From Gemmatimonadota bacterium (GTDB lineage Bacteria; Latescibacterota; UBA2968; UBA8231), in the NCBI GenBank assembly GCA_038128265.1, contig JAYPJE010000015.1, positions 17,255-81,254 of the forward strand: a stretch of DNA of 64,000 nt, in the 5' to 3' direction. Below the pieces are notes generated by a model. The model ran no database searches and was not told the origin of the DNA. It saw nothing but the letters and a program-made list of their open reading frames with translations. Positions 6,996-41,654 of the stretch are shown piece after piece. Position 1 is the first letter of the stretch, and every line of letters starts with the position of its first letter. The position numbers and the translations under genes were made by a program.

Positions 6996-7733
6996 TCAGC
7001 GCGCTTCGTAGGCTTCGGCGCGGGTATGGGCGCGGCGTCCAGGGCACAGCGCCTGCATGGCCGATGGCATGCGCGCGTAGGTTTCGGGGTGCACGGGCTG
7101 GTGTCCATTTTCTACCCAATTGTTGAACCAGCGCGGGTAGTAGGCGATATTGAGGCCCATGCGCACGTCCGTCGAGGTGTTGGCGCGTGCCTGGTGCCAC
7201 AGGCCGCCGTGCCACAGTAGAACGGAGCCAGCCGGTGCTTCAACTGGGATAATCCGCGCCGGATTGAGGTCGCTGGGGGGCGCTTTTTGACGCGTGGTAT
7301 GGCTCATCGGCACTACGCCGGTCGCGCCGTTTTGCGCGGTAAAATCGCTCAGTGCCCAAATGCTGTTGATCATCCACGGCACGTCGGGGACCTGAAGAAA
7401 CGACCCGGTCGAATCGGCGTGCAGCGCCTGAGCCGGTGCGCCGGGCCAGGTCGGCTTGGAACAGGCTTCGACGACGCGGCAGTTGGGGCCGAGAAAGTGG
7501 CGAGCGATCTCTACGACCTGCGGATGGCTCGCACAGCCCCAGACGCGCTCGTCCAGGTTGAGCATGCCAAAGAGCGTTTGGTAGTGCTCGTCGCCGACGA
7601 TATGGGCGGCGTGGGACGGATCGGCGTGCAGTTCGAGACAGCGCTCGCCAAGGGCTAGGGCTTCGGTGCGCGGTATGGCGTTTTCCAGCAGGCAGTAGCC
7701 AAAGCACTCGAGGTGGCGAATGGCATCGTTCAT
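6996..7733 (-). CDS. Phytanoyl-CoA dioxygenase (PhyH) family protein
   Basis: QALHAD (HxD), DFTAQNGATGVVPMSH, LWHQARAN. Confidence 0.9.
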   Translation of the reverse strand: MNDAIRHLECFGYCLLENAIPRTEALALGERCLELHADPSHAAHIVGDEHYQTLFGMLNLDERVWGCASHPQVVEIARHFLGPNCRVVEACSKPTWPGAPAQALHADSTGSFLQVPDVPWMINSIWALSDFTAQNGATGVVPMSHTTRQKAPPSDLNPARIIPVEAPAGSVLLWHGGLWHQARANTSTDVRMGLNIAYYPRWFNNWVENGHQPVHPETYARMPSAMQALCPGRRAHTRAEAYEAR

Positions 7734-9551: not shown

Positions 9552-10760
9552 GTGCCAACACAGATACTGGCCGAGGTGCCGCTGCTCGGCGGGACGCATG
9601 AGATCACTATAGAGGGCACGCACATTGCCTCGCTGCGGCCCTCGTCGGCATCAACGGACCTGTGCGTCGGCCCGGCGCTTTTCGACATACAGGTCAACGG
9701 GTACGGTGGTCGCACCTGCCGCATTGCTTCGCAGGAGAAAGAAGATGCGCTGACTTATATTGCGCGGCTGCTGCGCGAGCGCGGCGTTGGCTGGTGGTTG
9801 CCGACGATTACAACGGCTAGCGCAGAGGATTTGCTGACGGCCTTTACCTGCTGCGGTCGCGCCTTAGACGCCGATGCCGATTTGGCGGCCTCTATTCCCG
9901 GGCTGCACCTGGAAGGACCCTACATATCGAACGTGGATGGTCCGCGCGGTGCGCACGGATTAGAGCACGTGCGTCTACCGGATTGGGACGAGGTGCAGCG
10001 GCTGGACGAGGCGTGCGGTGGGCGTATTCGCCTAGTGACGCTAGCGCCAGAAGTCGAAGGGGCCGTGCCCTTTATTAAGCAGTGCGTTGCCGCGGGTATG
10101 GTCGTGGCGATGGGCCATACGGATTTAGACCGCGAGTCGCTGGCGCGCGCAGTGGATGCCGGCGCAACGCTGTCGACGCATTTGGGCAACGGCGCTCACG
10201 ACCAGCTGCAGCGGCACAACAACTATTTGTGGTATCAGCTAGCCGAGGAGCGCGTATACGCGTCGTTTATTGCCGACGGACAGCACCTGCCGCGCGAATG
10301 CCTGTACTCCATGCTGCGCGCCAAGGGGTTTGCGCGCTCAATTCTCATCTCCGACTCAGTGCTTCTGGGTGGGATGAAGCCGGGAATTTACGGCGTGCGC
10401 GGACGCGATATTGAAATGCTGGAATCGGGGCGCATCGTCGTGCCCGGCACGCCAAATCTGGCCGGCAGCGGCAGCAATCTAAAAGAGTGCGTAGAATGGG
10501 CGACGCGCTCGGGGAATGTGGCGCACGGAGAGGCCTGGGCTATGGCCAGCACGAATCCTGCGCGCCTGCTGAGCTTGGACGACCGGCTGGGAATCGGTGA
10601 GGGCTGTGAAGCGACGCTGGCGGTCTACGAAAAGTCGGCTGACGGCGCGTCGATCGACGTGCGTCAGACTTGGGTTGCCGGTCGCTTGGTATTCGATGCC
10701 GCGCGCGACGCGCTGACGTCGATGCCGGAGGTGCCGCCCGACGCGGCTGCGCCCATTTGA
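9552..10760 (+). CDS. nagA: N-acetylglucosamine-6-phosphate deacetylase family amidohydrolase
   Basis: DIQVNGYGG, GLHLEGPYIS, RGAH, VTLAPE, GHT, THLGN, IADGQH, LAGS. Confidence 0.85.
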   Translation: MPTQILAEVPLLGGTHEITIEGTHIASLRPSSASTDLCVGPALFDIQVNGYGGRTCRIASQEKEDALTYIARLLRERGVGWWLPTITTASAEDLLTAFTCCGRALDADADLAASIPGLHLEGPYISNVDGPRGAHGLEHVRLPDWDEVQRLDEACGGRIRLVTLAPEVEGAVPFIKQCVAAGMVVAMGHTDLDRESLARAVDAGATLSTHLGNGAHDQLQRHNNYLWYQLAEERVYASFIADGQHLPRECLYSMLRAKGFARSILISDSVLLGGMKPGIYGVRGRDIEMLESGRIVVPGTPNLAGSGSNLKECVEWATRSGNVAHGEAWAMASTNPARLLSLDDRLGIGEGCEATLAVYEKSADGASIDVRQTWVAGRLVFDAARDALTSMPEVPPDAAAPI

Positions 10761-27256: not shown

Positions 27257-27399
27257 GAAACAGGCCCGGTCAGTAATTAAAGAGCAGAACAATATGAAAT
27301 AATATGAATTATGTTGTTAGTACACAAGTATTTACTAATGTGTGAAAAGGATGCGCGGAACCGGTTTACATCTGGCGCATCGACCTAGTGGGAGCGATG

Positions 27400-27428
27400 T
27401 TTACAAGGATAATGGCGTTTGTTATTAT
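27400..27428 (+). promoter_or_regulatory. Sigma-70-type promoter upstream of the lepB-proteasome gene run
   Basis: TTTACA-17 nt-TATTAT about 30 nt before the lepB ATG. Confidence 0.6.
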
Positions 27429-27458
27429 ATCCGCACGTCGCGATGTCAAAGGAGATCT

Positions 27459-28163
27459 ATGGACGCCAAGAATCGCAAATCGAGCATCGGGGAGTATGTT
27501 TCGTCTATCCTCGTTGCCGTGGGGTTGGCACTGCTTATTCGCACGGCGGTGGTGCAGGCCTTCTACATTCCCTCTGGCTCTATGGAAGACACGCTCCTGG
27601 TCGGCGATTATCTACTTGCCAATAAATTTGTCTACGGAGCGCCTTTGGACGTGCCGGCAACCAATATAACCCTCTTTCGCCTGCCGGCGATACGCGACCC
27701 ACAACCCGGTGATATTGTTATTTTTCGCTCTCCGGTCGATTCCGACCGCGATCTCATCAAGCGCTGCGTTGCCGTAGGAGGGCAGACGGTCGAAATCGTC
27801 AACAAGACGCTTTATGTCGACGGCCAGCCCTTCGCCGATCCGCCGCTAACCAAATACACCGATCGCGCAGTCTATTCGGCCGCTTTCAATCCGCGCGATA
27901 ACTTCGGTCCTTTTGCCGTGCCCGAGGGGCACTTTTTCATGATGGGGGACAACCGCGATAACAGCGCCGATAGCCGCTACTGGCGTTCCGTGCCCAAGGA
28001 TTTGATTAAGGGCAAGGCGATGAGTATATACTGGTCGTGGGCGCCCGACACGGGGGGGCCGTACTACAGCGGTCCCGCGTCGCTGCCCAGGGTATTGGCC
28101 AGCTGGATTGGGCGCCTGCCGAGCCGCGTGCGCTACGAGCGCTTGGGCGACGTCATTCGCTAG
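27459..28163 (+). CDS. lepB: Signal peptidase I
   Basis: One TM segment, then IPSGSMEDTL..GD, IKRC, MMGDNRDNSADSR; AAGGAG RBS. Confidence 0.96.
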   Translation: MDAKNRKSSIGEYVSSILVAVGLALLIRTAVVQAFYIPSGSMEDTLLVGDYLLANKFVYGAPLDVPATNITLFRLPAIRDPQPGDIVIFRSPVDSDRDLIKRCVAVGGQTVEIVNKTLYVDGQPFADPPLTKYTDRAVYSAAFNPRDNFGPFAVPEGHFFMMGDNRDNSADSRYWRSVPKDLIKGKAMSIYWSWAPDTGGPYYSGPASLPRVLASWIGRLPSRVRYERLGDVIR

Positions 28164-28173
28164 GACGGAGAGC

Positions 28174-29898
28174 ATGAATAGGCGAAATAGCAGAGACCGA
28201 GACGACGACTACGATTACGACGACTACGACGAGCGCGAAGTCGGTCAGGCCGAAGACGGCGACGAGCCGCTGCGCTTGGTGGACCAGCTCTTGACAATGG
28301 CTGCCGACCGCGATCCGGCGCGTCCGCTGCTCTACCAGCTGCGGCGCCAGTTGATGGAGCGCGAGATTTCCTTTCAGGAGGCCCGGCGCTCTCTTGTCGA
28401 GATGGAAGCGGCGCTGGAAAAGGTCACGGCACCGGCCAACCGGATCGGCATTTTTCTCAATTCGCCCAAAGAAGGTATCGCCAACGTATTCGTCAGCGGC
28501 TCCGAGTACTATGCCAATATCGATCCGCGCGTCGACGCAGAGCGCCTGCGCGCCGGCTGCCGGGTGCTGATCAATGAAGCCTATGCGGTGGTGGGCGATT
28601 TGGGCTACAGCCCGAGCGGCCCGGTCGCCAAAATAGGCGATGTGCTCGAAGGGGGGCGGTTGCGCCTGTCGCAGGCACACGGAACGCAGGAGATCGTGCT
28701 GGAGCGCGGCGCCGAACTGCAGGATATCGATTTGAAGGTGGGCGACGAGGTGCGCGTCGATCCAGCTTTTAAAGTGGCCTTGGAACGACTGCAGTCGTCC
28801 GAGAGCAAGGAGTACTTTATCGAAGACGTGCCGCCGACGCCCTGGGACAGCATTGGCGGTCAGCAGGAGGCCATCCAGGCCATCCGCGATACTATTGAGC
28901 TGCCGGCCCTGCACCCCGAACTGTTCGAGCGCTTTCAGTACAGCACGCCCAAGGGGTTTTTGCTCTACGGTCCGCCCGGATGCGGCAAGACGCTGATCGG
29001 CAAAGCCACGGCCTACAACCTGGTCGAGCACATGCGTCGCGAAGAGGGCTTGGAGCTCGAAGAGTACTTCATGCACATCAAGGGGCCCGAGATCCTCAAT
29101 ATGTGGCTCGGCGAGACCGAGCGCATGGTGCGCGAAGTTTTTGCCCAGGCGCGGCAGAAGCGCAAGGAAGGCTACCTGCCCTTTGTCTTCATAGACGAGG
29201 CCGAATCCATTTTGGGCACGCGGCGTTCGATGCGCTCGCACAATATCTCCAATACCGTCGTGCCGATGTTCTGCACTGAGATGGACGGCATCGAGTCGCT
29301 GCACGACGTGGTCATTATTCTGGCTTCAAACCGCCACGACCTGATCGATCCGGCGATTTTGCGCCCCGGCCGCATCGACCGCAAAATAAAGGTCAACCGC
29401 CCCAACTACGAAGCGGCCAAGGCTATTTTCTCAATCTACCTGACGTCCTCTCTGCCGATCGATGCGGCGGAAGTGGCCGAGCACGGCGGCGAAGAGGCGG
29501 CGCGCGAAGCGCTTGTCCAGCAGGGCGTCGACGAGCTTTTTGCGCGCAGCGAGGAGACGCGTTTTCTCGAGGTTTCACTGCGCTCTGGGCGACAGGAAGT
29601 GCTCTATCGCAGCGACCTTTCCAGCGGGGCGATTATTGCGTCAGTGGTTCAGCGCGCCAAGGAGCTGGCCATCAAACGCGCCATTTCACAGCAGGAGGCC
29701 GGCGCGGGCGTCCGCGCGCAGGATCTGCGTGACGCCGTGCGGCACGAGTATCGCGAAAACGAGGTGTTTCCGCCGTCCGATAGCGTAGAGGATTGGCTCA
29801 AACTGCTCGACTACGAGCCGGAAAATGTGGTCAAGGTGACGCCGGTGCGCCCGCAGGTGGAAAAGGCGCAGGAGACGCGCGCCGGCAAGGTGATCTAG
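28174..29898 (+). CDS. arc: Proteasome-associated AAA+ ATPase (ARC/Mpa homologue)
   Basis: N-terminal coiled coil, Walker A GPPGCGKT, IKGPEILNMWLGETER, Walker B FIDEAE, NTVVP, DPAILRPGRIDRKI; position in the operon. Confidence 0.93.
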   Translation: MNRRNSRDRDDDYDYDDYDEREVGQAEDGDEPLRLVDQLLTMAADRDPARPLLYQLRRQLMEREISFQEARRSLVEMEAALEKVTAPANRIGIFLNSPKEGIANVFVSGSEYYANIDPRVDAERLRAGCRVLINEAYAVVGDLGYSPSGPVAKIGDVLEGGRLRLSQAHGTQEIVLERGAELQDIDLKVGDEVRVDPAFKVALERLQSSESKEYFIEDVPPTPWDSIGGQQEAIQAIRDTIELPALHPELFERFQYSTPKGFLLYGPPGCGKTLIGKATAYNLVEHMRREEGLELEEYFMHIKGPEILNMWLGETERMVREVFAQARQKRKEGYLPFVFIDEAESILGTRRSMRSHNISNTVVPMFCTEMDGIESLHDVVIILASNRHDLIDPAILRPGRIDRKIKVNRPNYEAAKAIFSIYLTSSLPIDAAEVAEHGGEEAAREALVQQGVDELFARSEETRFLEVSLRSGRQEVLYRSDLSSGAIIASVVQRAKELAIKRAISQQEAGAGVRAQDLRDAVRHEYRENEVFPPSDSVEDWLKLLDYEPENVVKVTPVRPQVEKAQETRAGKVI

Positions 29899-29901
29899 CG
29901 C

Positions 29902-31458
29902 ATGCTGCGACTGTGTGGGTTGGAAACGGAGTATGGAATCCAAGTCGACGATGTCGATCATATGGACGTCGTCGTCGAGTCGATGGAGCTAATCCGCTGC
30001 TACCTGCACGATGACTTCGTCGCGCGCTGGAACTACGCGCTGGAAAATCCTCGCCGCGATATGCGCGGTTTTGAAGTCGACGAGCTGCGCAACGACAAAG
30101 ACGAGATGGAGCACCTGCAGCAGGATCGCGCCCGCAAGATTCCGCTCAAGGATCTCAAGAGCGATCTGCTAATTCACAACGGGGCTCGCCTCTACAACGA
30201 TCACACGCACCCCGAGTTTTCCACCCCCGAGTGCTACGATTTATTTGGCCTGGTTGCCTTTGACCGCGCCGGTGAACGCATTCTGCTGGAGTGCGCCCAG
30301 CAGCGCACGGCGACGCGCGGCGGCGGCGTGGTGCGCCTTTACAAGAACAACACCGACTTTGACGGTCATAGCTACGGCACGCACGAAAACTTTCTCATTC
30401 GCCGCGATGTGCCTTTTGATCGGGTTATTGCCGCTCTGCTGCCCTTTATAGCCACGCGCCAGATTTACGCCGGCGCCGGCAAGGTGGGCGTTGAAGAAGA
30501 TGCGCGCGCCGATGGCGGCATATACCAGCTGGCGCAGCGCTCCGATTTTTTTGAGGTCATTACCAGCGTCGACACCATGCAGCGTCGGCCGCTGGTCAAC
30601 AGTCGCGACGAGCCGCACGCCGATCCGACGCACTGGCGCCGCCTGCACATGATCGTCGGCGACGCCAATATGTCGGAGTGGGCAACCGCGCTTAAGGTCG
30701 GCGCGCTGGGACTGGTGTTGGACCTGCTTGAAATGGACGCGGTGCCGGCGTGTGAGCTGGCCGATCCGGTGGGCGCGCTGAAGAGCGTTTCGCGCGACCA
30801 GACGCATCAGTGGCCCGTCGAACTGGCGGGCGGTGGGCACACGTCTGCGCTCGATATTCAGGCCACCTATTGGGAGGCGGCGCGCGAGCGGCTGCAGGGA
30901 CGCGACGGCGAGACGGACTGGGTGCTGGACGAGTGGCAGCGGGCTATTGAGGCGCTTGGCCGCGAACCGGGCGAGCTGCGTGGGCTGTGCGATTGGGTGA
31001 CAAAGAAGTGGCTGTTGGACGCCTTTGCCGAATCGGAAGGGTTGGACTGGAGTCGCCCCGACGATCGCGCCTGGCTGCAGAGCCAGGACTTGGAATATCA
31101 CAACGTCGACCCAGCCGAGGGGCTCTATCTGATGTTGGAGGAGAGCGGGCAGGTGTCGCAGCTGCTCAACGATGAAGAGGTGCGCCGCGCTATGGTGGTG
31201 CCGCCGGCGGATACGCGCGCCTACTTTCGCGGCGTGGCGCTGGAGAAGTTTTCCGCGCAGGTGCGCTCACTCAACTGGGATAGCATTGAGTTTGAGACGG
31301 CAGCGGGCAATGCGCACATCATCGATTTGAAAGGGTGTGTTGATGCGGCGTCGGCCGCATATTTTAACGCGGCGCTCGACGGAGCGAGCAGCGTCGAAGA
31401 GCTGGTGGAAAAACTGGCGGCCTGGCAGCCTCAGGACGCGTCGAAAGGAGAAGCGTGA
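29902..31458 (+). CDS. dop: Dop-like depupylase/deamidase
   Basis: GLETEYGI, Dop-type loop WNYALENPRRDMRGF, NGARLYNDHTHPEFSTPE, YKNNTD, SYGTHEN, RDEPHAD, DLEYH. Confidence 0.9.
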   Translation: MLRLCGLETEYGIQVDDVDHMDVVVESMELIRCYLHDDFVARWNYALENPRRDMRGFEVDELRNDKDEMEHLQQDRARKIPLKDLKSDLLIHNGARLYNDHTHPEFSTPECYDLFGLVAFDRAGERILLECAQQRTATRGGGVVRLYKNNTDFDGHSYGTHENFLIRRDVPFDRVIAALLPFIATRQIYAGAGKVGVEEDARADGGIYQLAQRSDFFEVITSVDTMQRRPLVNSRDEPHADPTHWRRLHMIVGDANMSEWATALKVGALGLVLDLLEMDAVPACELADPVGALKSVSRDQTHQWPVELAGGGHTSALDIQATYWEAARERLQGRDGETDWVLDEWQRAIEALGREPGELRGLCDWVTKKWLLDAFAESEGLDWSRPDDRAWLQSQDLEYHNVDPAEGLYLMLEESGQVSQLLNDEEVRRAMVVPPADTRAYFRGVALEKFSAQVRSLNWDSIEFETAAGNAHIIDLKGCVDAASAAYFNAALDGASSVEELVEKLAAWQPQDASKGEA

Positions 31459-31649
31459 TGAATGCTTTTGAACTGCGCGATCGCATACCGCGTCCCGTTA
31501 AGCCGATGGACGATGGTGGAGGCGAAGGAGATGAGGGGCCGCGCCGCCCAAAAGTCGAAAAACCCGGCGGGGGCGACGACATACTCAAGCGCATGAAGCG
31601 GGTCGATCCAAACCAGGCGCGGCGCTATCGCCAGCGCACGGGTGAATAG
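31458..31649 (+). CDS. ubact: UBact (Pup-analogous ubiquitin-like modifier), 63 aa
   Basis: Small low-complexity protein between dop and prcB ending ARRYRQRTGE (R[ST]G[EQ] signature); AAAGGAG RBS; ATG overlaps the dop TGA. Confidence 0.92.
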   Translation: MNAFELRDRIPRPVKPMDDGGGEGDEGPRRPKVEKPGGGDDILKRMKRVDPNQARRYRQRTGE

Positions 31650-31657
31650 GCGCATCG

Positions 31658-32425
31658 ATGGAAAGCTGTGACTTTCTCGATCTGCTGCGCGAAGGGGGGC
31701 ACCTGCCTGAGGTTGCCTCCATCGGGCAGGGCGAGCGGCCTTTTGAGGATACGGAAGGGACGACTATCCTTGCCGTGCGCTATCGCGACGGCGTGCTTGT
31801 AGCGGGCGACCGTCGGGCGACCATGGGCAACCTGGTTGTCTATGATCGCGCTGATAAGGTGCTGAGTATCGATGACGACTCGGTAATGGCCATTTCGGGC
31901 TCGCCGGCCATCGCCTACGAAATAGCGCGCATGTTGGAGATGTCCATACAGTACTACAGGCGCAGTCAGCTGCAAACGCTCAGCCTCGACGGCAAGCTGC
32001 GGACGCTCTCGCGGCTGCTGCGACAGAACTTGCCGATGGCCATGCAGGGAGTCGGCGCGGTAATCCCGATCTATGCGGCCTTTGACGAGCGCGATGCGAC
32101 GGGCAAAATATTTTTCTACGACCTGCTTGGCGCGACGTTTGAGAGCGTCGATTTTTGCACCACGGGATCGGGGTCGCACATTATTCGCGGTGCGCTCTAC
32201 TACCTGAATCGGTGGGGCGATACGCCCTTGGCGGAGATGGACGAGAACGCCGCGCTGGAACTCGTTGTCAAAATGTTGGAGACGGCGGCCGAGTACGATA
32301 CGGCCACCGGCGGTTATCGCCAGAGTGCGCGTATTTACCCAACGGTTATGCGGGTCAGCGCCAACGGCATTCACTGCGTGGAAGAGGGCGAATTGGAAGC
32401 GATCTTCCAGGGACGGATGGCTTAG
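31658..32425 (+). CDS. prcB: 20S proteasome beta subunit
   Basis: 34-aa propeptide ending in G, then TTILAVRYRDGVLVAGDRRATMG (Thr1 nucleophile); TTGSGS; DTATGG. Confidence 0.93.
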   Translation: MESCDFLDLLREGGHLPEVASIGQGERPFEDTEGTTILAVRYRDGVLVAGDRRATMGNLVVYDRADKVLSIDDDSVMAISGSPAIAYEIARMLEMSIQYYRRSQLQTLSLDGKLRTLSRLLRQNLPMAMQGVGAVIPIYAAFDERDATGKIFFYDLLGATFESVDFCTTGSGSHIIRGALYYLNRWGDTPLAEMDENAALELVVKMLETAAEYDTATGGYRQSARIYPTVMRVSANGIHCVEEGELEAIFQGRMA

Positions 32426-33187
32426 ATGTTAGAGGAACCTTATCGCTGGGTCGAGGCCATGCGCAACCGGCGCGACTACCTAGATGACCAACTGCGCGGC
32501 GCTTCGCCGGTAGTGGCTACGCGCTACGAGAACGGCGTTCTGCTGCTGACAACAACGCCGGGACCGCGCAAAGTATTTGAGGTATACAACGAAATTGCCT
32601 TTGCCGCCATCGGCCACCCCGCCGATATCGAGAAGCTGCGCAAGGCCGTTATCGATATCGCTCATTTAGAGGGTTTTAATCTCTCGGCGAGCGATGTCAA
32701 CTTGCAGCGCTTGGTAAGCTTTGGAATCGGTCCGCTTGTTAAAGGGGCGTTTGATGAAATTTTTCGCTCGCCTTTCTTGGCGCGCGTGCTGCTGGCCGAA
32801 CTGGATCCACCCAGCGGCGACGATGTGTTTTACACCATTGATGCAGACGGGTCGTTTGTGCGCGCTGGCCACGCAGCTGCTGTCGGCAGCGAGGAGAGCG
32901 TAGAGGCCATCGTCGATGCGCTGAGTGAACACCCGCCCGAAGCGGGATTGGATGCCGCCCTAGGAGCTGCGCTCAACGCGTGGGCACGAGGTCGTATGGC
33001 TATGGACCGCGAAGAGGGAGAAGACCAGCCCGGCGAAGGGGACGTCGACGCCTTCCTGCGCGAGGCGCTAGTCGACCTCAAAGTAGAAGCGGCCGTGCTC
33101 GATCGCAGTGTATCAACCAAGTCGAAGTTTCGCCTGTTGGGCGACGACGACTTGAGGACCGTGCTGAGCGCATATCGCGGGGCGTGA
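32426..33187 (+). CDS. prcA: 20S proteasome alpha subunit
   Basis: EPY..., PRKVFEVYNEIAFAAIG, EAAVLDRS, KFRL; directly follows prcB. Confidence 0.88.
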   Translation: MLEEPYRWVEAMRNRRDYLDDQLRGASPVVATRYENGVLLLTTTPGPRKVFEVYNEIAFAAIGHPADIEKLRKAVIDIAHLEGFNLSASDVNLQRLVSFGIGPLVKGAFDEIFRSPFLARVLLAELDPPSGDDVFYTIDADGSFVRAGHAAAVGSEESVEAIVDALSEHPPEAGLDAALGAALNAWARGRMAMDREEGEDQPGEGDVDAFLREALVDLKVEAAVLDRSVSTKSKFRLLGDDDLRTVLSAYRGA

Positions 33188-33189
33188 CC

Positions 33190-34611
33190 ATGAAGGATCG
33201 CATCTTTGGGCTAGAGACAGAGTACGGCTGCTTGCCGCCGGATACCGAGCCCTTCCTGAGTCCAGACTACATATCGGTCAAAACCAAAGACTGCCTGTTT
33301 TTTCGCGAGGGGTTGGGTCTCGTCGACATGCATTACCGCGGCCGCGACGAGCCGCCGGGCAACGGCGGCTTTCTCTTTAACGGCGGCAGGCTCTACATCG
33401 ACATGGGACACGTCGAATACGCTACCCCCGAATGTTCCGGCCTCTTCGACCTAGTGGCCGCTGATCGCGCCGGCGAAGTTATGGTGCAGCGCGCGCTCGA
33501 TCACCTCGATAGCAGCGGCCGCGCCTCCTTTATAAAGAACAACATAGACCACTATACGGGGGCGACCTTCGGCTGCCACGAGAACTATTTGGTGCGTCGT
33601 GAAGTGCCCTTTTCCCAGGTGTTGCTGCCGGCTATGCTGCCGTTTTTCGTCACGCGGCAAATCTTTGCCGGGGCCGGTCGCGTTGGCTGCCATACGGATA
33701 TCTTTGAGTCGGGTGTCGAGCCAGACCAGAGCGTCACGTACCAAATTTCGCAGCGCGCCGACCATATCGTCACGGAAATCTACCAGTGGATACAGTTTAG
33801 CCGCGCCATTATCAATACGCGCGACGAGCCGCTGGCCGATTGGGGGCAGTTTCGCCGTTTGCATCTTCTGGTTGGCGATTCGAATATGTCGGAGTACGCT
33901 ACGGCGCTCAAGGTGGGCACTACGGGTCTGGTGCTGCAGCTCCTAGAGGAGCGCATCGTGCCAGAAATGGGTTTGCTCAACGCCGTGGACGCCATACGCG
34001 ATATTTCGCGCGACGTCAGCTGCACGTGGGAAATCCAGCTAGAAGACGGTCGCTATACGACGGCCATTGACGTGCAGCGCCACTATTTGGATTTGGCAGA
34101 GCGGTATCTGCGCGGGCGCGAAGAGGAGACCGACTGGGTCCTGGACGAGTGGCGCTTTGTGCTGGACGGCCTGCTGCACGATCCGGGCGCGCTGATTGAT
34201 CGCGTCGACTGGATTGCCAAGAAGTCGCTGTTGGAGCAGTTTATGGAAGCCGAGGGCATCGACTGGCACGATCCGTGGTTGCAGAGCTTGGATTTGGAAT
34301 ACCACAATTTGAATCCCAGCAAGGGCCTGTATTTTGATCTGCTCCGGCGCGGCCGCATGAAGCGCGTGGTAGACGAGGAGCGCGTCAACAATGCCATCGC
34401 CAATCCGCCGGCCGACACGCGCGCTTGGGCGCGCTCGCACGTCATGCGCGCGCTGACCGAAATGAAGGCGCGCTACGTCGTCGACTGGGATTCGATTTAC
34501 GTTGAGGACGATCGATATCTCAACATAGATGATCCATTTTGCCTGTACGAATCGGACGCGGATGAATTTATCGAAGAGCTCGGTGCAGATGGCGATGATG
34601 AAGAAGAATGA
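33190..34611 (+). CDS. pafA: PafA-like Pup/UBact-protein ligase
   Basis: RIFGLETEYG, NGGRLYID, GCHENYL, ISQRADHI, SRAIINTRDEP, RRLHLLVGDSNMSE, DLEYH; start placed at ATG 33190. Confidence 0.9.
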   Translation: MKDRIFGLETEYGCLPPDTEPFLSPDYISVKTKDCLFFREGLGLVDMHYRGRDEPPGNGGFLFNGGRLYIDMGHVEYATPECSGLFDLVAADRAGEVMVQRALDHLDSSGRASFIKNNIDHYTGATFGCHENYLVRREVPFSQVLLPAMLPFFVTRQIFAGAGRVGCHTDIFESGVEPDQSVTYQISQRADHIVTEIYQWIQFSRAIINTRDEPLADWGQFRRLHLLVGDSNMSEYATALKVGTTGLVLQLLEERIVPEMGLLNAVDAIRDISRDVSCTWEIQLEDGRYTTAIDVQRHYLDLAERYLRGREEETDWVLDEWRFVLDGLLHDPGALIDRVDWIAKKSLLEQFMEAEGIDWHDPWLQSLDLEYHNLNPSKGLYFDLLRRGRMKRVVDEERVNNAIANPPADTRAWARSHVMRALTEMKARYVVDWDSIYVEDDRYLNIDDPFCLYESDADEFIEELGADGDDEEE

Positions 34612-34688
34612 AAAGTAGCATTGTGCAAATAATTTATTATATTGACTCGTAGTTGACGTACCCACTCCTGCCCCAAGGAGAGTAGTTC

Positions 34689-35144
34689 ATGTTCGCTTCA
34701 GCCAACGCTGCGGTTGGCGGCGTGTTTACGGTTCCGCTCAAGGCGCGTAACCAGATGCGCGTGCCGACGCAGGGCGCGCGCGTGCGCGATGGGTTGGGCA
34801 TCGCCCCCCTGCGCGCTACAGGTGGATCGCCCGGGTCGCTGCAAAAGCCCATGGCCGCGCGCAGTAGTTTAGTGACGCCGCCCGCTTCTGGTGGAGGCAT
34901 CCTTTCGCAGATGCAGGGCCAAGTGCGCAGCGTGAGTCCGCTCACCGCGGGCGTGCGCAGTGCGCATCGCGCCAAGCCGGGCATGTCAGCCGGCGTGCTG
35001 CAGGCGCGGCAAACCGGTCTGCTGGAGCGTATGCGCCGCGCCGATAGCGGCAGTCGCGTGCTGCAGGCGGGTGCCAATCCACTGCGCAACGGAGGCGGTT
35101 TTGGCTTCAAATCCGCTATCAGCAGCATCAATCTTCTCGGATAA
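34689..35144 (+). CDS. Hypothetical highly basic, low-complexity protein (151 aa)
   Basis: AAGGAG RBS 8 nt before ATG; fills the gap between pafA and the protease gene; no recognisable domain. Confidence 0.65.
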   Translation: MFASANAAVGGVFTVPLKARNQMRVPTQGARVRDGLGIAPLRATGGSPGSLQKPMAARSSLVTPPASGGGILSQMQGQVRSVSPLTAGVRSAHRAKPGMSAGVLQARQTGLLERMRRADSGSRVLQAGANPLRNGGGFGFKSAISSINLLG

Positions 35145-35160
35145 GTCGCCGCTGTCCACA

Positions 35161-38100
35161 TTGTACCTATCCCACTTTCTGCGCATTTCTTTCACCTTAT
35201 GGGCGCTTGCCGGCACGGTTTCGGCGAGCGCTTTTGAGTGTGCACTACCCACCCCAGCCGGTAAGCGGCTGCAGGTGGGCAATAGCCTGAGTGCGCTGGT
35301 CATTTTTGCCCAATTTGCAGGACAGGGCGCTGGCTCATCGGCTCCCTCTTGGTCGGCAGACCTGTTTAACCCCTCCGTTCCCGGAAGTTTTACCCATTTC
35401 TACAACGATATGTCGGGCGGGCTGCTGCAGGTGCGTGGTCGCGTCCTGCCCAAGCGCTACAGCGCGCTGGATACTGCCGATGCCTATGTTGCGGCTGAAG
35501 GGGGCGGAGTGGGTCAGTATGGCCTCTTTAACTTGCAGGTGCTGCGCCAGGCTGATGCCGATAGCGACTTTGGAGAATTTGATAACGACGGTCCAGACGG
35601 CGTGCCCAATTCAGGTGATGATGATGGCTATGTCGACATCGTATTTATCAATCTGCACACGGTGCCGCGCGGTTTTTTTATTGGTTCGGCGACGGGACTA
35701 GCCTCGCTGGGATTGGATGCCGACTACATCAGCAATGACGCGGCGGCGGGCGGGGGCTTCGTGCGCGTGCGCAGCCGCTTTAACGGCTTTGGCGGCACGA
35801 CGCAGCGCGGTCATACGTTCAGCGTTACGGCTTCTACAATGTGTCACGAATTTGGCCACGTGCTTGGATTGACCGACTTATTTGATCAGAGCTCGCTCTC
35901 GGCGGCGGGCGAGTTGGATCCGGAGCAAGATTCTGCTGGCATCGGCAAGTGGGGGCTCATGGGATTGGGCACGTTGGGATGGGGCGTTGAAGATGGTCCC
36001 AACGCGTTTAGCGGGCCGACGCTGGCCGAGTTGGGATGGGTCGAGGTCGACGTGTTGGATAAAGCCGCTGCGGGACTCTCTCTCGAAGAAGTCTTTACCG
36101 GGCGCCGGCTGCTGAAAATTCCCGTGAGTCGCTACGAGTACTTTCTACTCGAATATCGACGAGCGGCCGGCTCGTACTACAATCGAAATATTCCGCAGGA
36201 CGGCCTGTTGCTGTGGCATGTCGACGAGCGGGCCGACAACGACGAGGAGCGCCATAAGCGCATCGATCTGGTATGTGCCGATGGGCTCTTTGCCGACAGA
36301 GGGGCGCCGTCGACCGCAGCGGATCCATACGCTGGCCGGGACAACCTCGATTTCTGGTCGCGCGATGCGGCCTATGCCAGTGAGTACAACGGCAACCAGG
36401 GCGACGCGGGCGACCCCTTTGACGGCGTGCGCTATCGGCGCATCGCTTGGGATACCAACCCCGCCCTGCGCGCCCATAGTGGGTCAACGCGCGGCGTCGA
36501 GTTGGCCTGGGCTCTGGAAAATATGCGGCCAGAGGGCAACCAGATGCGCTTTGACTTTGCCGGCACAGCGCGCGAAGGCCATATCGTGGGTCAGGTGCGC
36601 TGGGAGGGAGACGTTCAGCTGAACGGCGACGTAGTCGTGCAGCCCGGTGCGCGCCTAGTGCTAGCCGATGGCGTGCGCGTTGCGCTGGCGCGCGGCGATG
36701 CGCGCGGGGCTGGATTTGATCCGGACCGCAGCGAGCTGATCGTCTATGGCGAAGTGGTGCAGGAGGGAACGGCCGCTTTTCGCTCTTCAGCGGCGACGCC
36801 GGGTGCGCTCGATTGGTCGGGTATTTTTCTGATGGACGGCCAGGCATTGGACGAGGGGGCGCTGAGCGTAGAAAATGCGCGTTTTGGCGTCGTGCGCTTT
36901 CGCCTGCCTCCAGGACAGACGACCTGGAGCGGCGACGTTTCCGTGCGCGGCGACCTACTCGTGCCGGTCGACGCCAAGCTGGTAGTCGAACCGGGGACGC
37001 AGCTGTTTTTTTCCGAAAGCGATATCGCCGTTAACGGCGTGTCGCCCAGCTACGTCGAGCTGGTGGTGGAGGGTGCGTTGGAGGCTCGTGGGCAGATTGA
37101 CGCGCCGCTGCGCTTTACGACGGCACCGAACCCGCAAGACGACCAACTATGGTATGGGGTGCGCCTGCTGCCATCGGCGCGCACGGACGTCGCGTTTGCC
37201 CAGTTTGACCATGTGGGCTTCGCCTTTAGCGGCGAGATTGGCCGAAATGGATCGCTGCGCGTGGCTGATGCGGTCCTGCGCGATGCGGCCGGCGGTGGCG
37301 CCAGCGTGACGCTGGTCGGTGAAGCCGGTTTTGAGCGCACGCTGTTTACGCGCATTACCGGACCGGCGCTGCGCGTTGATGGCAGCGGGCAGGTGACGCT
37401 GCGCCAGGCGCGCATTGTCGGCAACGGCCAGGAGGGCATCGTGCTCAATAACGCCTCGCTGCTGGCACTGGACGTAGAAATCACCAACAACGGTTTGTTG
37501 GATGGAGAAGACCCGCGCTCGGGTCTGCGCGCCGTCGGCGGTGGGGGACAGAAAATCGAGCTGTGGAACGCGACGGTTGAACGCAATAGCAAGCACGGAA
37601 TTGAATTGGTGGACTGGCTTGGGGAAGTGGAACTATACGATTCCTTTGTCAACGCGAACTATCGCGATGGCCTGCGCGCCGGTCGGCTCAAAAAGTTGGT
37701 GTTTGAGCAGGTTGACGTGCAGCGCAATCTGGGTGGAGGTGTCGCCGTTGACAGCGCCTACGTAGAGCTGTGGACCAGTTATGTGCTGGGCAATGTCGGC
37801 GACGCACTCTACCTGGGACCCGGCAGCACGGGAGCCATTGAAATGGGACACTTCGGCGGCGGGCCGGGCACCGTGCTCGATCGGGTGGGAACGCTTTTTG
37901 TGCGCACCAGCACGTTTGAACGCGCTCCCGTTGGATTGCGCCTGATCGACGGCGATCCCGTGCTGGAAAAAAATCGTCTGATCGGCAATGCCGTGGCTCT
38001 CCGCATCGAGGGCACTCGCGTGCCGTCGGTCGTGCGCAGTAATGCGTTTCTCGATAACGCTACGGCGGTTGAAAATCTGACGAACCGGGCGCTGCAGGCG

Positions 38101-38508
38101 GCGGGGAACTACTGGGGCACTACGGATAGCACGGCCATTGCCGGACTCATGTGGGGCCGAGTTGATTTTTCCGGTTTCCTCGCAGAAGAGCCCGATCCGA
38201 CGGCGGTCGAACAAGTGCAGGAAGTTCCTTTGCGCTTTGCGTTGGGACTGGGCTATCCCAATCCCTTCAATGCCGCTGTCGCCATTCCCTTTGAACTCGG
38301 TGAAGCGGTGCATGCCAAACTGTCTGTATACGACGCGCTAGGTCGCAGGGTGCGCACGCTCGTTGACGCGGCAATGGCCGGCGGAACACACAGCGCCCAT
38401 TGGGACGGACGCGATGAGCGGGGGGGCGAGGCAGCTTCCGGCCCGTATTTTTATCGCCTGCAGGCCGGCGACTTTGCCGCTCAGGGCCGCGTATTGCTGC
38501 TGCGCTAG
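35161..38508 (+). CDS. Secreted M6 (immune inhibitor A-like) metalloprotease with beta-helix repeats and C-terminal FlgD-Ig/sorting domain
   Basis: HEFGHVLGLTDL, WGLMG, EYFLLEYR, GLLLWHVD; C-terminal YPNPFN...YDALGRRVRTL...WDGRD...SGPYFYRL; start inferred at TTG 35161 (signal-like). Confidence 0.85.
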   Translation: MYLSHFLRISFTLWALAGTVSASAFECALPTPAGKRLQVGNSLSALVIFAQFAGQGAGSSAPSWSADLFNPSVPGSFTHFYNDMSGGLLQVRGRVLPKRYSALDTADAYVAAEGGGVGQYGLFNLQVLRQADADSDFGEFDNDGPDGVPNSGDDDGYVDIVFINLHTVPRGFFIGSATGLASLGLDADYISNDAAAGGGFVRVRSRFNGFGGTTQRGHTFSVTASTMCHEFGHVLGLTDLFDQSSLSAAGELDPEQDSAGIGKWGLMGLGTLGWGVEDGPNAFSGPTLAELGWVEVDVLDKAAAGLSLEEVFTGRRLLKIPVSRYEYFLLEYRRAAGSYYNRNIPQDGLLLWHVDERADNDEERHKRIDLVCADGLFADRGAPSTAADPYAGRDNLDFWSRDAAYASEYNGNQGDAGDPFDGVRYRRIAWDTNPALRAHSGSTRGVELAWALENMRPEGNQMRFDFAGTAREGHIVGQVRWEGDVQLNGDVVVQPGARLVLADGVRVALARGDARGAGFDPDRSELIVYGEVVQEGTAAFRSSAATPGALDWSGIFLMDGQALDEGALSVENARFGVVRFRLPPGQTTWSGDVSVRGDLLVPVDAKLVVEPGTQLFFSESDIAVNGVSPSYVELVVEGALEARGQIDAPLRFTTAPNPQDDQLWYGVRLLPSARTDVAFAQFDHVGFAFSGEIGRNGSLRVADAVLRDAAGGGASVTLVGEAGFERTLFTRITGPALRVDGSGQVTLRQARIVGNGQEGIVLNNASLLALDVEITNNGLLDGEDPRSGLRAVGGGGQKIELWNATVERNSKHGIELVDWLGEVELYDSFVNANYRDGLRAGRLKKLVFEQVDVQRNLGGGVAVDSAYVELWTSYVLGNVGDALYLGPGSTGAIEMGHFGGGPGTVLDRVGTLFVRTSTFERAPVGLRLIDGDPVLEKNRLIGNAVALRIEGTRVPSVVRSNAFLDNATAVENLTNRALQAAGNYWGTTDSTAIAGLMWGRVDFSGFLAEEPDPTAVEQVQEVPLRFALGLGYPNPFNAAVAIPFELGEAVHAKLSVYDALGRRVRTLVDAAMAGGTHSAHWDGRDERGGEAASGPYFYRLQAGDFAAQGRVLLLR

Positions 38509-38545: not shown

Positions 38546-39439
38546 GTGCATACGGGACGAATCGAACGGTGTCCGGACGCGTTACAGCCGCGCCACAGAG
38601 AGCAGTATAGTGCGTTGGGCTACGTCGCATTCAACGATGTGCTCAGTGAGCGAGAAGTCGACGATGCGCGTCGGGCTCTGGCGCGCGTAACGCAGTCCAT
38701 GATGGAAGCGGTGCATCAGGGCACGGGGCAAATCAAGCAGGCACCCTGTGGGGCGACGCGCAACTACGCCGGTCCGCGCGTAATCAGAGATGGCAGCCCG
38801 TGCGTCCTGCACTTTGAAGCTGGCATTGATCCGCACACGCTCGACCCTGCACACGTCGAGGACTCGTTTCGCAAACTGCACAACTACCATGCGGAAGACG
38901 CCGTGTTCCAGCGCCTGGTCGAATGGCCGCGCATCCGCGGCTTCCTGTCTGAACTGATCGGTCAAGACATGGTGCTGAAAGACGTCATGGCTCTTTCCAA
39001 GCCGCCCTTTATCGGATCGGAAAAGCCGTGGCACCAGGACAATGCCTACTTTAACTGGCTGCCTCTCGACTGGGTTGGAACGGTGTGGATAGCGCTCGAC
39101 GATGCGACGGTGGAGAATGGGTGTATGCACGTACTGCCGGGGCAACACGTGCGCGGTCCGCTGCGCCATCACCACACGATCGACTGCGAGATTATCCCCG
39201 ACCGACTTGATCCATCGCAGGCCGTCCCCATCGAACTGCGCGCAGGTGGAGTGCTGTACTTTTCCGCTCTGTTGCCCCATCAAACGCCGCCCAATGCCAG
39301 CTCTACACGCCGCCGCGCTCTGCAATTTCAGTACCGTTCTATCAACGCGTATCAGGTGACGGCAGAGGAGTTTGGCAAGGTCTTTGCCGAAGCGGACGGC
39401 ACGCCCGCTTCGTGCGCGTTGGCCCATGAGAATGGGTAG
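38546..39439 (+). CDS. Phytanoyl-CoA dioxygenase (PhyH) family protein
   Basis: KPWHQDNAYF, VWIALDDATVENGCMHVLPG, HQTPPN.S..RRALQ; GAGGAG RBS. Confidence 0.92.
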   Translation: MHTGRIERCPDALQPRHREQYSALGYVAFNDVLSEREVDDARRALARVTQSMMEAVHQGTGQIKQAPCGATRNYAGPRVIRDGSPCVLHFEAGIDPHTLDPAHVEDSFRKLHNYHAEDAVFQRLVEWPRIRGFLSELIGQDMVLKDVMALSKPPFIGSEKPWHQDNAYFNWLPLDWVGTVWIALDDATVENGCMHVLPGQHVRGPLRHHHTIDCEIIPDRLDPSQAVPIELRAGGVLYFSALLPHQTPPNASSTRRRALQFQYRSINAYQVTAEEFGKVFAEADGTPASCALAHENG

Positions 39440-41654
39440 GGCGGCATTTGCCGCGCTGTTTTGGCTGTGCGTATGGGATGTGTCGACCGGGTATAGTGCA
39501 CTGCAAGCACAGGCTCAGCGCTCCGTAGCGCGGCGCTGGAACGAAGCGCTGCTCGAGGCCATTCGCAACGATTACGCCCGCCCAACGGTGCACGCGCGCA
39601 ACCTCTTCCACGTATCGGTCGCCATGTATGATGCTTGGGCGGCCTACGACGAAGTCGCCGTGCCCTATGTGCTCGGTCACCGCATCGGATCCTATGCGTG
39701 CGGCTTTTCCGGCGTTGAGCAGCCCATCGACGCCGAGGCCGCGCGCGTTGAGGCAATGAGCTATGCGGCGTATCGCCTGCTGGTGCATCGCTTTAGCGCC
39801 TCGCCGGAGGCGCGCGGTTCCCTCAATAGCTTTCGCACGCTGATGACGGAGCTGGGCTATACTCCCGCTTTCACATCGATTGACTATACCAGCGGGTCGC
39901 CCGCGGCGTTGGGCAACTACATTGCGCGCTGTGTGATAGACTTTGGCCTACAGGATGGCGCCAATGAGCTCAACGGCTATGCCAGCCTAGCCTACCGCCC
40001 GATCAATCCACCATTGCGTCCGGCCGAGCCGGGCAACCCGACGTTGATTGACGCCAACCGCTGGCAGTCGCTCTCGCTGCAGATCTTTATCGACCAGTCC
40101 GGTCACCAGTTGCCGGGTGGAACGCCGCCCTTTGTAACGCCCGAGTGGGGTAGCGTTGTGCCCTTTGCTCTAAATGAGGGAGACCGCTCCGTTCGAGTGC
40201 GCGCGGGGCATACCTATTCGGTGTATCGCGATCCCGGTCCGCCGCCCTATACGACCGAGGACGGCAGCGGGACGACGGATGACTACGCGTGGAATTTTGC
40301 CCTTGTCGCGCTGTGGTCTGCGCATCTCGATCCGGCCGATGGCGTGCTGTGGGATATCTCGCCCGGTGCGATCGGCGGTATAGATACGTGGCCGCAGACG
40401 CCGGCCGAGCTGCGCGCATTTTACGCGGAGGTCGAGGGAGGAGACGGCAGCAGGGGACATGCGCACAACCCGCACACGGGTCTGCCCTACGATGCGCAGC
40501 GCGTGCCGCGCGGCGACTATGCGCGCGTGCTGGCCGAGTTCTGGGCTGACGGTCCCAGCTCGGAGACCCCGCCGGGACATTGGTTCGTCCTGCTCAACTA
40601 CGTCTGCGACCAGCCGGGCTTAGAGCGGCGCATGCGCGGTGACGGGCCGCTGCTCGATGCGTTGGAATGGGACGTCAAGGCGTATATGGCACTCGGTGGT
40701 GCGATGCACGACGCCGCCATTGCGGCTTGGAGTATTAAAGGCTGGTATGACTATATACGCCCTATTTCGGCTATTCGCGCCATGGCCGACCGCGGCCAGC
40801 GCAGCGACCCACAGCAGCCGCGCTATGCGGCAGGCGGACTGCCCCTGTATCCGGAAAGTATCGAATTGATCGAAGCGGGCGATGCGCTGGCAGGTGCCGA
40901 CGGAGAACACGTCGGCAAGATCAAACTGCGCGCCTGGCGCGGTGCGCATGCGGTGGACAACGCGCGCGAAAACGCCACCGGCGTCGGTTGGATTCGCGCC
41001 GAAGACTGGTGGCCCTATCAGCGCCCATCCTTTGTGACGCCTCCCTTTGCGGGCTACGTATCTGGCCACTCGACCTATTCGCGCGCGGCGGCTGAGGTGT
41101 TGACGCTGCTGACTGGAGATGCGTATTTCCCCGACGGCATTGCTCGGTTTCGCGCGCGTCGCAACGAATTTCTCACCTTTGAGCGAGGGCCGAGCGTCGA
41201 CGTTGAACTGCAGTGGGCCACCTATCGAGATGCTGCAGACCAGTGCAGTCTGTCGCGCATCTGGGGAGGTATTCACCCACCGGCCGACGATATGCCCGGT
41301 CGCCTGCTGGGTCGGGATATTGGCCAGCAGGCCTTTGCCCATGCCGAACGCTACTTTGCAGGTCAGGTAGACTACCGTCCGGCGCAGGCCTCAGTCGGAG
41401 AAGTCGCCGTGCGAACTTATCCCAACCCGCTGCTTCAGGGGCAGTCGCTGCGCGTGCTTTTCGATCGCGCGGTCGCCGATGATTTTTTTGAACTGTCCCT
41501 CTATGACGTGCTTGGACAGTTGGTCGATAGGCGCCAAGTGGAACGCCAGCAAGCAGCCGTACAACTCGACGCATCGCTGGCCGCCGGCGTATATCTGCTG
41601 CAGGTGCGGGGTGCGGGATGGCAGGCCGGCGCCAAGCTCGTTGTCATCGATTAG
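39426..41654 (+). CDS. Vanadium-dependent haloperoxidase/PAP2-like secreted protein with C-terminal sorting-type domain
   Basis: KGWYDYIRP, PPFAGYVSGHS, SRIWGGIH vanadate/phosphate-binding motifs; C-terminal YPNP...LYDVLGQLV...AGVYLLQV; start 39426 or 39432. Confidence 0.85.
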   Translation: MRMGRAAFAALFWLCVWDVSTGYSALQAQAQRSVARRWNEALLEAIRNDYARPTVHARNLFHVSVAMYDAWAAYDEVAVPYVLGHRIGSYACGFSGVEQPIDAEAARVEAMSYAAYRLLVHRFSASPEARGSLNSFRTLMTELGYTPAFTSIDYTSGSPAALGNYIARCVIDFGLQDGANELNGYASLAYRPINPPLRPAEPGNPTLIDANRWQSLSLQIFIDQSGHQLPGGTPPFVTPEWGSVVPFALNEGDRSVRVRAGHTYSVYRDPGPPPYTTEDGSGTTDDYAWNFALVALWSAHLDPADGVLWDISPGAIGGIDTWPQTPAELRAFYAEVEGGDGSRGHAHNPHTGLPYDAQRVPRGDYARVLAEFWADGPSSETPPGHWFVLLNYVCDQPGLERRMRGDGPLLDALEWDVKAYMALGGAMHDAAIAAWSIKGWYDYIRPISAIRAMADRGQRSDPQQPRYAAGGLPLYPESIELIEAGDALAGADGEHVGKIKLRAWRGAHAVDNARENATGVGWIRAEDWWPYQRPSFVTPPFAGYVSGHSTYSRAAAEVLTLLTGDAYFPDGIARFRARRNEFLTFERGPSVDVELQWATYRDAADQCSLSRIWGGIHPPADDMPGRLLGRDIGQQAFAHAERYFAGQVDYRPAQASVGEVAVRTYPNPLLQGQSLRVLFDRAVADDFFELSLYDVLGQLVDRRQVERQQAAVQLDASLAAGVYLLQVRGAGWQAGAKLVVID

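Follow-up and report, generated by a model that had tools for sequence, protein, structure and literature searches.

A UBact-proteasome operon conserved in a class of Latescibacterota, its presumed tag ligase and its tyrosine-free ATPase tail

The locus described here lies in a 64,000-nucleotide (nt) stretch of contig JAYPJE010000015.1 (assembly GCA_038128265.1), hereafter the window, and is an operon of six genes for a ubiquitin-like tag, UBact, two enzymes of the Pup ligase family and a proteasome. The best-studied relative is the Pup-proteasome system of Actinobacteria (Mycobacterium, Corynebacterium, Acidothermus, Rhodococcus), which has the same six functions and the same gene order as the window operon. 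The UBact of Gram-negative bacteria was reportedly named by Lehmann, Udasin, Livneh and Ciechanover in 2017 (BBRC 483:946), with R[ST]G[EQ] said to be its signature, and loci of this type are catalogued under the models PF20513 and NF033388. Like these, the window encodes a tag that passes both models and ends in RTGE, stands with homologues of Mpa, Dop, PrcB, PrcA and PafA, and belongs to a diderm outside the Actinobacteria; it appears to differ from them in nothing essential. Similar also, in the passages that concern such genes, are the loci predicted by Iyer, Burroughs and Aravind (2008, PMC2588565), where a small protein ending in G[EQ] lies beside one of two PafA paralogues, linked to the proteasome and outside the Actinobacteria; the lineages given in those passages are nitrospirae, verrucomicrobia, deltaproteobacteria and planctomycetes, and Latescibacterota-type bacteria are not among them. 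We consider it very probable that the window holds a working UBact-proteasome system, operating most likely in the manner of actinobacterial pupylation.

All coordinates below are positions in the window, and the open reading frames (ORFs) were read with their translations. Six of them lie on the plus strand in the order arc-dop-ubact-prcB-prcA-pafA, at the positions given earlier by an annotation made from the DNA letters and the ORF list (the sequence-only reading):

28174..29898, plus strand: ARC/Mpa-type proteasomal AAA+ ATPase, 574 amino acids (aa) from ATG, with AAA and two OB domains
29902..31458, plus strand: Dop-type depupylase/deamidase homologue, 518 aa, Pup_ligase match, full Dop-loop
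31458..31649, plus strand: UBact, ubiquitin-like tag, 63 aa from ATG, ending in RQRTGE, PF20513/NF033388
31658..32425, plus strand: PrcB, 20S proteasome beta subunit, 255 aa, Proteasome match
32426..33187, plus strand: PrcA, 20S proteasome alpha subunit, divergent, 253 aa, Proteasome match
33190..34611, plus strand: loop-less PafA-type enzyme, presumed UBact ligase, 473 aa from ATG, Pup_ligase match

Between arc and dop there are 3 nt, dop and ubact overlap by 1 nt (TGATG), and the next three gaps measure 8, 0 and 2 nt, so that the six abutting or overlapping genes with gaps of at most 8 nt, as the sequence-only reading had put it, are indeed there. The ATG of ubact overlaps the dop stop by 1 nt, and the motif AAGGAG stands 7 nt upstream of it. 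The longest possible ORFs of arc and of the pafA-like gene would start at a TTG (28108) and a GTG (32980), respectively. A scan for promoters and terminators gave nothing usable (terminator-like sites: 8, where 8.1 would be expected; promoter-like sites: 6, where 2.9 would be expected).

All six products match the expected Pfam family, and the profile searches that the sequence-only reading had proposed as a check (Pup_ligase, Proteasome, UBact) all gave matches, those of Proteasome and UBact lying above the Pfam cut-offs. Its names for the components are thus good at the family level for all six genes; the label 'PafA' is less secure, since the PafA and Dop models tie on that protein and the trees disagree. 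The whole genome holds two Pup_ligase genes, one UBact gene (75.7 bits) and one ARC gene. The parallel that had been drawn to the actinobacterial Pup-proteasome is supported both by these family matches and by the closest solved relatives, since actinobacterial proteins are the closest solved structures for five of the six window proteins. The two systems have in common the Dop-loop with its Trp, the catalytic Asp in both paralogues and Thr1, Asp17 and Lys33 of the beta subunit, as well as a tag that ends in Gly-Glu or Gly-Gln with variation between Glu and Gln. Unlike the actinobacterial system, that of the window has a tag without a match to the Pup family, an ARC tail of the form G-x-V-I instead of GQYL, and proteins that stay below the equivalog cut-offs. 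The presumed ligase reads D-M-G-H where the actinobacterial one reads D-V-G-S-H, its alpha-loop is different and invariant in the lineage, and the host, in contrast to Actinobacteria, is a diderm that also possesses HslVU.

The tag itself is clearly recognized by both curated models, with 69.4 bits against a cut-off of 27.8 for PF20513 and 76.7 bits against a cut-off of 35 for NF033388, and no match to the Pfam Pup family was found at E values up to 1. Its end, RQRTGE, agrees with the reported signature R-[ST]-G-[EQ]; the 63-aa modifier with a UBact-type end had therefore been called correctly. To see how far the gene is kept, one genome per species was scanned with the PafA-like protein, which gave 80 related loci (L006-L085) with 60-96% identity. 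UBact was found in 76 of them, the four others being truncated, and its neighbours are Pup_ligase and proteasome genes: in all 76, as in the window, it stands between the Dop-type gene and prcB. An alignment of 41 sequences has 20 invariant columns, most of which fall in the last 19 residues (R45, M46, V49, D50, P51, Q53, R56, Y57, R58, Q59, R60, T61 and G62 among them).

The small ORF also changes in a coding pattern. When its last 26 codons are compared with those of 75 loci, 714 codon differences are synonymous and 394 non-synonymous, and 993 of 1622 base differences fall in the third position, although these comparisons across loci are not independent of each other. For the three closest loci examined, the synonymous and non-synonymous differences are 5 and 0 (the closest), 13 and 1, and 8 and 1. 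That the small ORF is neither conserved nor expressed had been named as a finding that would speak against the system; as to conservation, it is retained in 76 of 80 loci with coding-type change. One related locus (L028) has a second, weak UBact-like tblastn match (10267-10419, 43% identity) about 850 nt downstream of pafA.

The terminal residue of the tag is not fixed. All 76 relatives end in either RTGQ (50) or RTGE (26), and on a FastTree phylogeny of 76 ligase sequences (27 with Glu and 49 with Gln) at least six switches between the two are needed. Such switches occur even among close relatives, as the tags of the window, L006 and L008 end in Glu, and those of L007, L009 and L010, with ligases 85-90% identical, end in Gln. 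The last codon of the window tag, GAA, is one base away from CAA.

Conservation extends to the whole operon. In 72 of the 80 related loci all six genes keep their order and strand, a recurrence far beyond chance. The other eight are cut by contig ends, none being rearranged; the genes still present in these eight keep the same order. Two loci contain insertions of about 1.3-1.9 kb in the otherwise tight operon: L035 between dop and the tag gene (4351-6291), and L076 within or next to arc, where the arc match is in two pieces (764-2067), and again between prcB and prcA (5438-7109). Of 168 genomes from the phylum of the window, 131 have Pup_ligase genes, in most cases as two matches. They are found in 72 of 75 genomes of its own family and in all 56 of three further families of the same class, hence in 128 of 131 for the four families (f1-f4) taken together; they are also present in both genomes of one other family (f9) and in none of the 34 of the remaining nine families. 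The operon is thus an old, vertically kept trait of the class, and not an oddity of one metagenome-assembled genome (MAG).

The source MAG, from an uncultured aquatic bacterium, measures 4.29 Mb in 102 contigs and is 84.5% complete, with an estimated contamination of 5.15%. It encodes BamA (372 bits, over the curated cut-off), and therefore its host is a diderm; a search for LpxC found none, which at 84% completeness is no evidence of its absence. Both BamA and the labels of the relatives agree with the earlier statement that the genome is of a non-actinobacterial, Gram-negative type. The public records of the 80 related loci are labelled Latescibacterota or Latescibacteria (60), Gemmatimonad-type (14), Planctomycetota (1), Handelsmanbacteria (1) or unclassified (4). 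The two closest loci (96% and 90%) carry Gemmatimonad-type names, and near-identical operons under four phylum names point to inconsistent public taxonomic labels rather than to transfer. One locus, L068, whose PafA-type protein is 71% identical, is labelled Candidatus Handelsmanbacteria, a name that is reportedly among the candidate divisions listed by Lehmann et al. in 2017. DNA near-identical to the operon is present in 20 DNA sequencing runs; the 12 metagenome studies behind them deal with estuaries, the sea, fresh water and biofilms. On another contig of the same genome (C20, L004 203-2025, minus strand) there is a pair of HslV and HslU genes (239 and 564 bits, over cut-off), which adjoins a gene for a XerC/D-type recombinase; the 20S proteasome and its bacterial cousin HslVU thus coexist in this genome.

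Of the two Pup_ligase proteins, the 518-aa one is, to judge from its sequence, clearly of the Dop type. It scores 505.4 bits with Pup_ligase and 434.9 bits with the Dop model TIGR03688 against 350.8 with the PafA model, i.e. 84 bits apart, and it aligns with Acidothermus Dop (4b0r/5lrt; 373.7 bits) over residues 2-469 with the loop included. The Dop-loop, described in the pertinent section of Cui et al. (2021, PMC8599861) as present in all Dop orthologues and absent from all PafA homologues, is aligned with residues ~41-88 of the window protein and is well conserved in its first half, where ARW falls on the W47 region. All 72 orthologues keep this loop as well as the motif N-D-H-[TA]-H-P-E-[FY]-S-T; the window protein reads N-D-H-T-H-P-E-F-S-T-P where Dop, in Table 1 of PMC7947786, reads V-D-H-A-H-P-E-Y-S-T-P. 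At nine alpha-loop positions compared with Dop, three residues are identical (F, E, V), three similar (V, D, R) and three different (I, S, Q).

Since the tag already ends in Glu, no deamidation would be needed in this strain, and the sequence-only reading had concluded that Dop would act only as a tag remover. This is sound by analogy with those Actinobacteria whose Pup ends in Glu. Across the lineage, Gln-ended tags are in the majority and alternate with Glu-ended ones even between near relatives, so that its Dop-type enzyme has probably retained the ability to deamidate.

The 473-aa paralogue scores 473.7 bits with Pup_ligase, is without the Dop-loop and aligns end to end with the solved CgPafA (4b0t; 4-464 to 11-473). 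We have further compared it at the discriminating positions of Table 1 of Hecht et al. (2020, PMC7947786), mapped by hand onto the alignment and given here in CgPafA numbering. At the 13 positions outside the alpha-loop, it has the PafA states F41, F54, G66, A72, T73 and D439; L63 and V65 correspond to the similar residues I and M, G and N stand in place of S50 and S51, the Dop state occurs at A37 (S) and A74 (P), and S67 is missing. PafA states are also present at H188 and S200, and a Dop state at G192. The His beside the catalytic Asp is lost (D-M-G where Dop has D-H-A). In 47 sequences, F61 of the window protein never varies, and M72, G73 and H192 are each conserved to 90% or more. Close relatives (matches of 74-96% identity) are already named 'proteasome accessory factor PafA2 family protein' by NCBI.

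In addition to the sequence comparisons, we have modelled this enzyme with AlphaFold (AF2), which gave a confident fold (predicted local distance difference test, pLDDT, 88.9; predicted template modelling score, pTM, 0.91), and have predicted its complex with UBact. The complex reached an interaction prediction score from aligned errors (ipSAE) of 0.83 (0.84, 0.83 and 0.83 in separate runs), with 0.01 for the best control; this mark is reached by 58 of 80 solved complexes and by 2 of 110 mismatched pairs, a calibration that holds only roughly here as alignments of our own were supplied. At least 71% of the contacts are common to the runs, and the partner has a pLDDT of at least 51. In the model, the invariant part of UBact (residues 42-63) is in contact with four stretches of the enzyme, namely 11-16, 71-74 (where the catalytic Asp71 stands), 120-128 and 347-387. 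The predicted position of the UBact C-terminus at the Asp71 region supports binding of the tag by the PafA-type enzyme, and it is this modelled complex that would speak for conjugation of UBact to target lysines.

The ancestry of the loop-less paralogue has been examined with two sets of sequences. An exhaustive library search with the PafA-type protein returned 5792 relatives. Among the 150 representatives listed (at 50% identity), a single one is more than half identical to the window protein (63%), and the one after it stands at 44%. NCBIfam labels were obtained for 61 of these 150 and gave 10 true Dop and 3 true PafA proteins over cut-off. A tree of 75 rows (site-heterogeneous model, quick search) splits by function and places the window ligase on the PafA side, with a Shimodaira-Hasegawa-like approximate likelihood ratio (SH-aLRT) support of 94. 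Trees of 32 rows split by lineage instead, with UBact-type ligases and UBact-type Dop proteins together against actinobacterial-type PafA and Dop (support 92 with LG+G4 and 98.7 with the site-heterogeneous model, quick search); the rows of this set were chosen by hand, eight for each of four groups, and the choice may have biased the outcome. On the same 32 rows, the approximately unbiased (AU) test did not reject the grouping with PafA by function (log-likelihood difference 7.4, p 0.336). Compared with the PafA-leaning representatives of the set, the UBact-type ligases form the more divergent clade. Hecht et al. (2020), in the part of PMC7947786 on this subject, describe one ancient duplication for Actinobacteria and Nitrospirae. 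The trees thus disagree on whether the UBact-type ligase is an orthologue of actinobacterial PafA.

The ATPase has the architecture of a proteasomal activator, with an acidic N-terminal stretch, a coiled-coil region, two OB domains, an AAA module and the tail GKVI, and its Pfam matches are AAA (107.8 bits), Prot_ATP_ID_OB_N (61.6 bits) and Prot_ATP_ID_OB_C (46.4 bits). Its best solved relative is Mpa of M. tuberculosis (365.6 bits over residues 66-556). The Walker A motif reads GPPGCGKT, and a pore loop W-L-G is aligned to F-V-G of Mpa; Ar-Hb-Gly is given as the pore loop motif of proteasomal ATPases in the relevant section of Kavalchuk et al. (2022, PMC8755798). The same paper, where it treats the C-terminal GQYL of Mpa, attributes binding to the 20S core chiefly to the tyrosine in the penultimate position. 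The tail of the window protein (GKVI, at the 29884-29898 end of the gene) is matched in all 66 relatives by a G-x-[VI]-[IV]-like tail (GQVI 22, GKVI 12, HGVV 9, others 23), six further ARC matches that end early having been left out of the count. The conserved tyrosine-free tail is a real difference in sequence from Mpa.

The core subunits are recognizable as such, PrcB with 100.2 bits and PrcA with 31 bits (cut-off 22.4) for the Proteasome family. PrcB is closest to the Rhodococcus beta subunit (2h6j, 120.1 bits, G/TTI aligned) and has a 34-residue propeptide with the junction Gly34/Thr35, which makes Thr35 its predicted mature N-terminus; Asp51 and Lys67 correspond to Asp17 and Lys33. For PrcA, the match to the Rhodococcus alpha subunit (1q5q) amounts to 50.1 bits.

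Put together, these features suggest a pathway whose biochemical steps, division into ligase and remover, and coupling to degradation we infer from the actinobacterial model. The loop-less PafA-type enzyme would use ATP to activate the side-chain carboxylate of the C-terminal Glu of UBact and would then join the activated tag to lysines of target proteins. A hexamer of ARC would recognize the disordered tag, unfold the tagged protein and feed it into the PrcA/PrcB 20S core for degradation, PrcB having presumably matured by cleavage before Thr35. The Dop-type enzyme, with its Dop-loop, would remove the tag. The earlier proposal of an intact tagging and degradation pathway thus gains support from the family matches, the catalytic residues and the conserved operon.

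A number of results weigh against this assignment. The five actinobacterial NCBIfam equivalogs, although they are the best matches of the non-tag proteins, all remain below their curated cut-offs: ARC with 474.5 bits for TIGR03689 (504.75), Dop with its TIGR03688 score under 492.3, PrcB with 180.4 for TIGR03690 (191.9), PrcA with 73.7 for TIGR03691 (139.05), and the PafA-type protein with 372.8 for TIGR03686 (551.3). This last protein practically ties between its own full-length match and the 371.0 bits of the Dop model, which covers the core only, and it scores higher with a solved Dop (293.8 bits, core only) than with a solved PafA (262.4 bits, full length). Nor does its model discriminate, as Foldseek gives TM-scores of 0.84-0.85 to Dop and 0.84 to PafA. 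Its alpha-loop, which is the main discriminator between PafA and Dop in the part of PMC7947786 that deals with it, reads H-I-V-T-E-I-Y-Q-W-I-Q-F-S and resembles neither enzyme; of the CgPafA loop (H-x-W-E-G-x-S-S-A-T-T-R-S), only the first His and the last Ser are matched, and the two threonines conserved in both enzymes are absent. The predicted UBact complex may also have passed by likeness to the solved complexes of Pup with PafA (4bjr) and with Dop (7oxy), a penultimate Tyr is present in 0 of the 66 ARC tails, and there is no RNA run among the public sequencing runs listed for the operon, no expression data having been found.

These points raise the question whether the two paralogues are divided as PafA and Dop at all. 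The loop-less protein might be a second hydrolase or a bifunctional enzyme, with ligation performed by the Dop-type protein or by a heterodimer, and this reading could appeal to scores on Dop that at least equal those on PafA, to an alpha-loop unlike that of PafA and devoid of the conserved threonines, and to the 32-row trees, where the protein goes with the Dop-type proteins of its own lineage (92 and 98.7). A heterodimer of the two paralogues was indeed once proposed, as the corresponding passage of Iyer et al. (2008, PMC2588565) has it, but for Actinobacteria this idea has given way to separate PafA and Dop activities, according to what PMC7947786 and PMC8599861 say on the matter. Moreover, both window proteins obey the rule that the Dop-loop is in all Dop and no PafA proteins (as worded in that section of PMC8599861), the loop-less one has lost the His beside the catalytic Asp and shows the PafA states F54, A72, H188, S200 and D439, and in the 75-row tree it goes with PafA (94). 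We therefore regard an undivided or reversed pair as improbable.

Slightly less probable still is a loose coupling of tagging and proteasome, in which UBact would mainly regulate proteins or recycle amino acids and the tyrosine-less ARC would dock unproductively on the 20S core. The residue that the Mpa literature holds to be the main binding determinant is missing from every ARC tail counted, and M. tuberculosis Mpa itself binds wild-type 20S poorly in vitro, as stated in the portion of PMC8755798 on binding. The form of the tail is, however, strongly conserved (66 of 66), which suggests that a docking role has been kept; arc, the tag gene and the 20S genes share one tight operon in 72 of 80 loci, and the beta subunit keeps its catalytic residues. 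We have also considered and rejected, as having practically no chance of being right, a foreign origin of the operon, either as a binning contaminant or by recent transfer from an actinobacterium. The contamination estimate of 5.15% leaves room for such an error, and Hecht et al. (2020) argue, in the paragraphs of PMC7947786 on the subject, that the pathway spread horizontally from Actinobacteria to others; but the guanine-plus-cytosine content of the operon (0.59-0.62) is the same as elsewhere in the window, the same operon and neighbours are found on long contigs and closed chromosomes of relatives, the Pup_ligase genes of the operon occur in nearly every genome of the family (72 of 75), and no operon protein reaches an actinobacterial equivalog cut-off.

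Within the preferred reading of a UBact ligase and a Dop-type remover, the origin of the ligase may have been unusual. The alpha-loop stretch of the PafA-type enzyme is identical in 78 of 79 orthologues, and we tentatively put forward, as a possibility that we judge more doubtful than not, that the tag ligase of this lineage is no orthologue of PafA and arose when a Dop-like hydrolase was turned into a ligase independently, for a second time, its partner ARC docking through the tyrosine-free G-x-V-I tail. Such a conversion would have involved loss of the Dop-loop, loss of the His beside the catalytic Asp and gain of a new, invariant alpha-loop. If this were true, the UBact system would repeat in nature the change from hydrolase to ligase engineered by Hecht et al., and also the docking of a proteasome activator without an HbYX-type motif.

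As a find, the operon adds little. It is typical of a system that is already known and was defined by computation; that system is catalogued in Pfam and NCBIfam, close relatives of these proteins have already been named by NCBI and it is a trait of the whole class. In the literature that uses the word UBact, we found no biochemical study; the word is in no title or abstract, and most of the papers, to judge by their titles, use the string for something else. Where the tag is meant, it is named in a single sentence or the 2017 paper is cited. The 2025 'Pupdates' review is without the words UBact, Gram-negative and Nitrospir, and a search for Latescibacteria together with proteasome gave nothing on the topic, judged by titles. 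This fits the earlier statement that UBact lacks biochemical characterization, and it appears that no UBact system has so far been tested biochemically. The value of the locus lies in what it offers for experiment, since the biochemistry of UBact appears untouched. The clade provides natural contrasts, namely Glu- and Gln-ended tags in near-identical backgrounds, a ligase alpha-loop unlike that of PafA or Dop, and an unfoldase tail without tyrosine. These contrasts bear on questions that have been posed for the mycobacterial system, i.e. what determines ligase as opposed to hydrolase activity, and how the ATPase docks on the core.

The operon is flanked by further genes:

27342..28163, plus strand: signal peptidase I, Peptidase_S26 match of 170.5 bits, ending 10 nt before arc
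34689..35144, plus strand, and 34637..35161, minus strand: overlapping ORFs between pafA and the gene for the large secreted protein, of 151 and 174 aa, compared by tblastn
34960..38508, plus strand: secreted protein of 1182 aa, with a beta-helix, an FlgD-Ig-like C-terminus and weak peptidase M6 and type-IX sorting-domain matches
39372..41654, plus strand: protein of 760 aa with DUF6851, a vanadium-chloroperoxidase-like helical domain and a C-terminal type-IX sorting domain (26 bits, cut-off 27)

In 55 of the 80 loci, namely all those of L006-L068 with upstream room, arc is directly preceded by the signal peptidase I gene, which gave no match in the L069-L085 subgroup. The 1182-aa secreted protein has a match downstream of pafA in 59 of the 80 loci, five of these matches being short; it is present in most of the loci that have the signal peptidase I, and no full-length match was found in the L069-L085 subgroup. 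Both are conserved neighbours, and nothing found here links them with the work of the tagging system. Of the two overlapping ORFs after pafA, that of 174 aa on the minus strand has no Pfam match and gave tblastn matches in 12 loci, and that of 151 aa on the plus strand gave matches in 24; the latter is more likely to be real, because it is matched in more loci. The neighbouring genes carry type-IX-secretion-like sorting domains, as weak matches.

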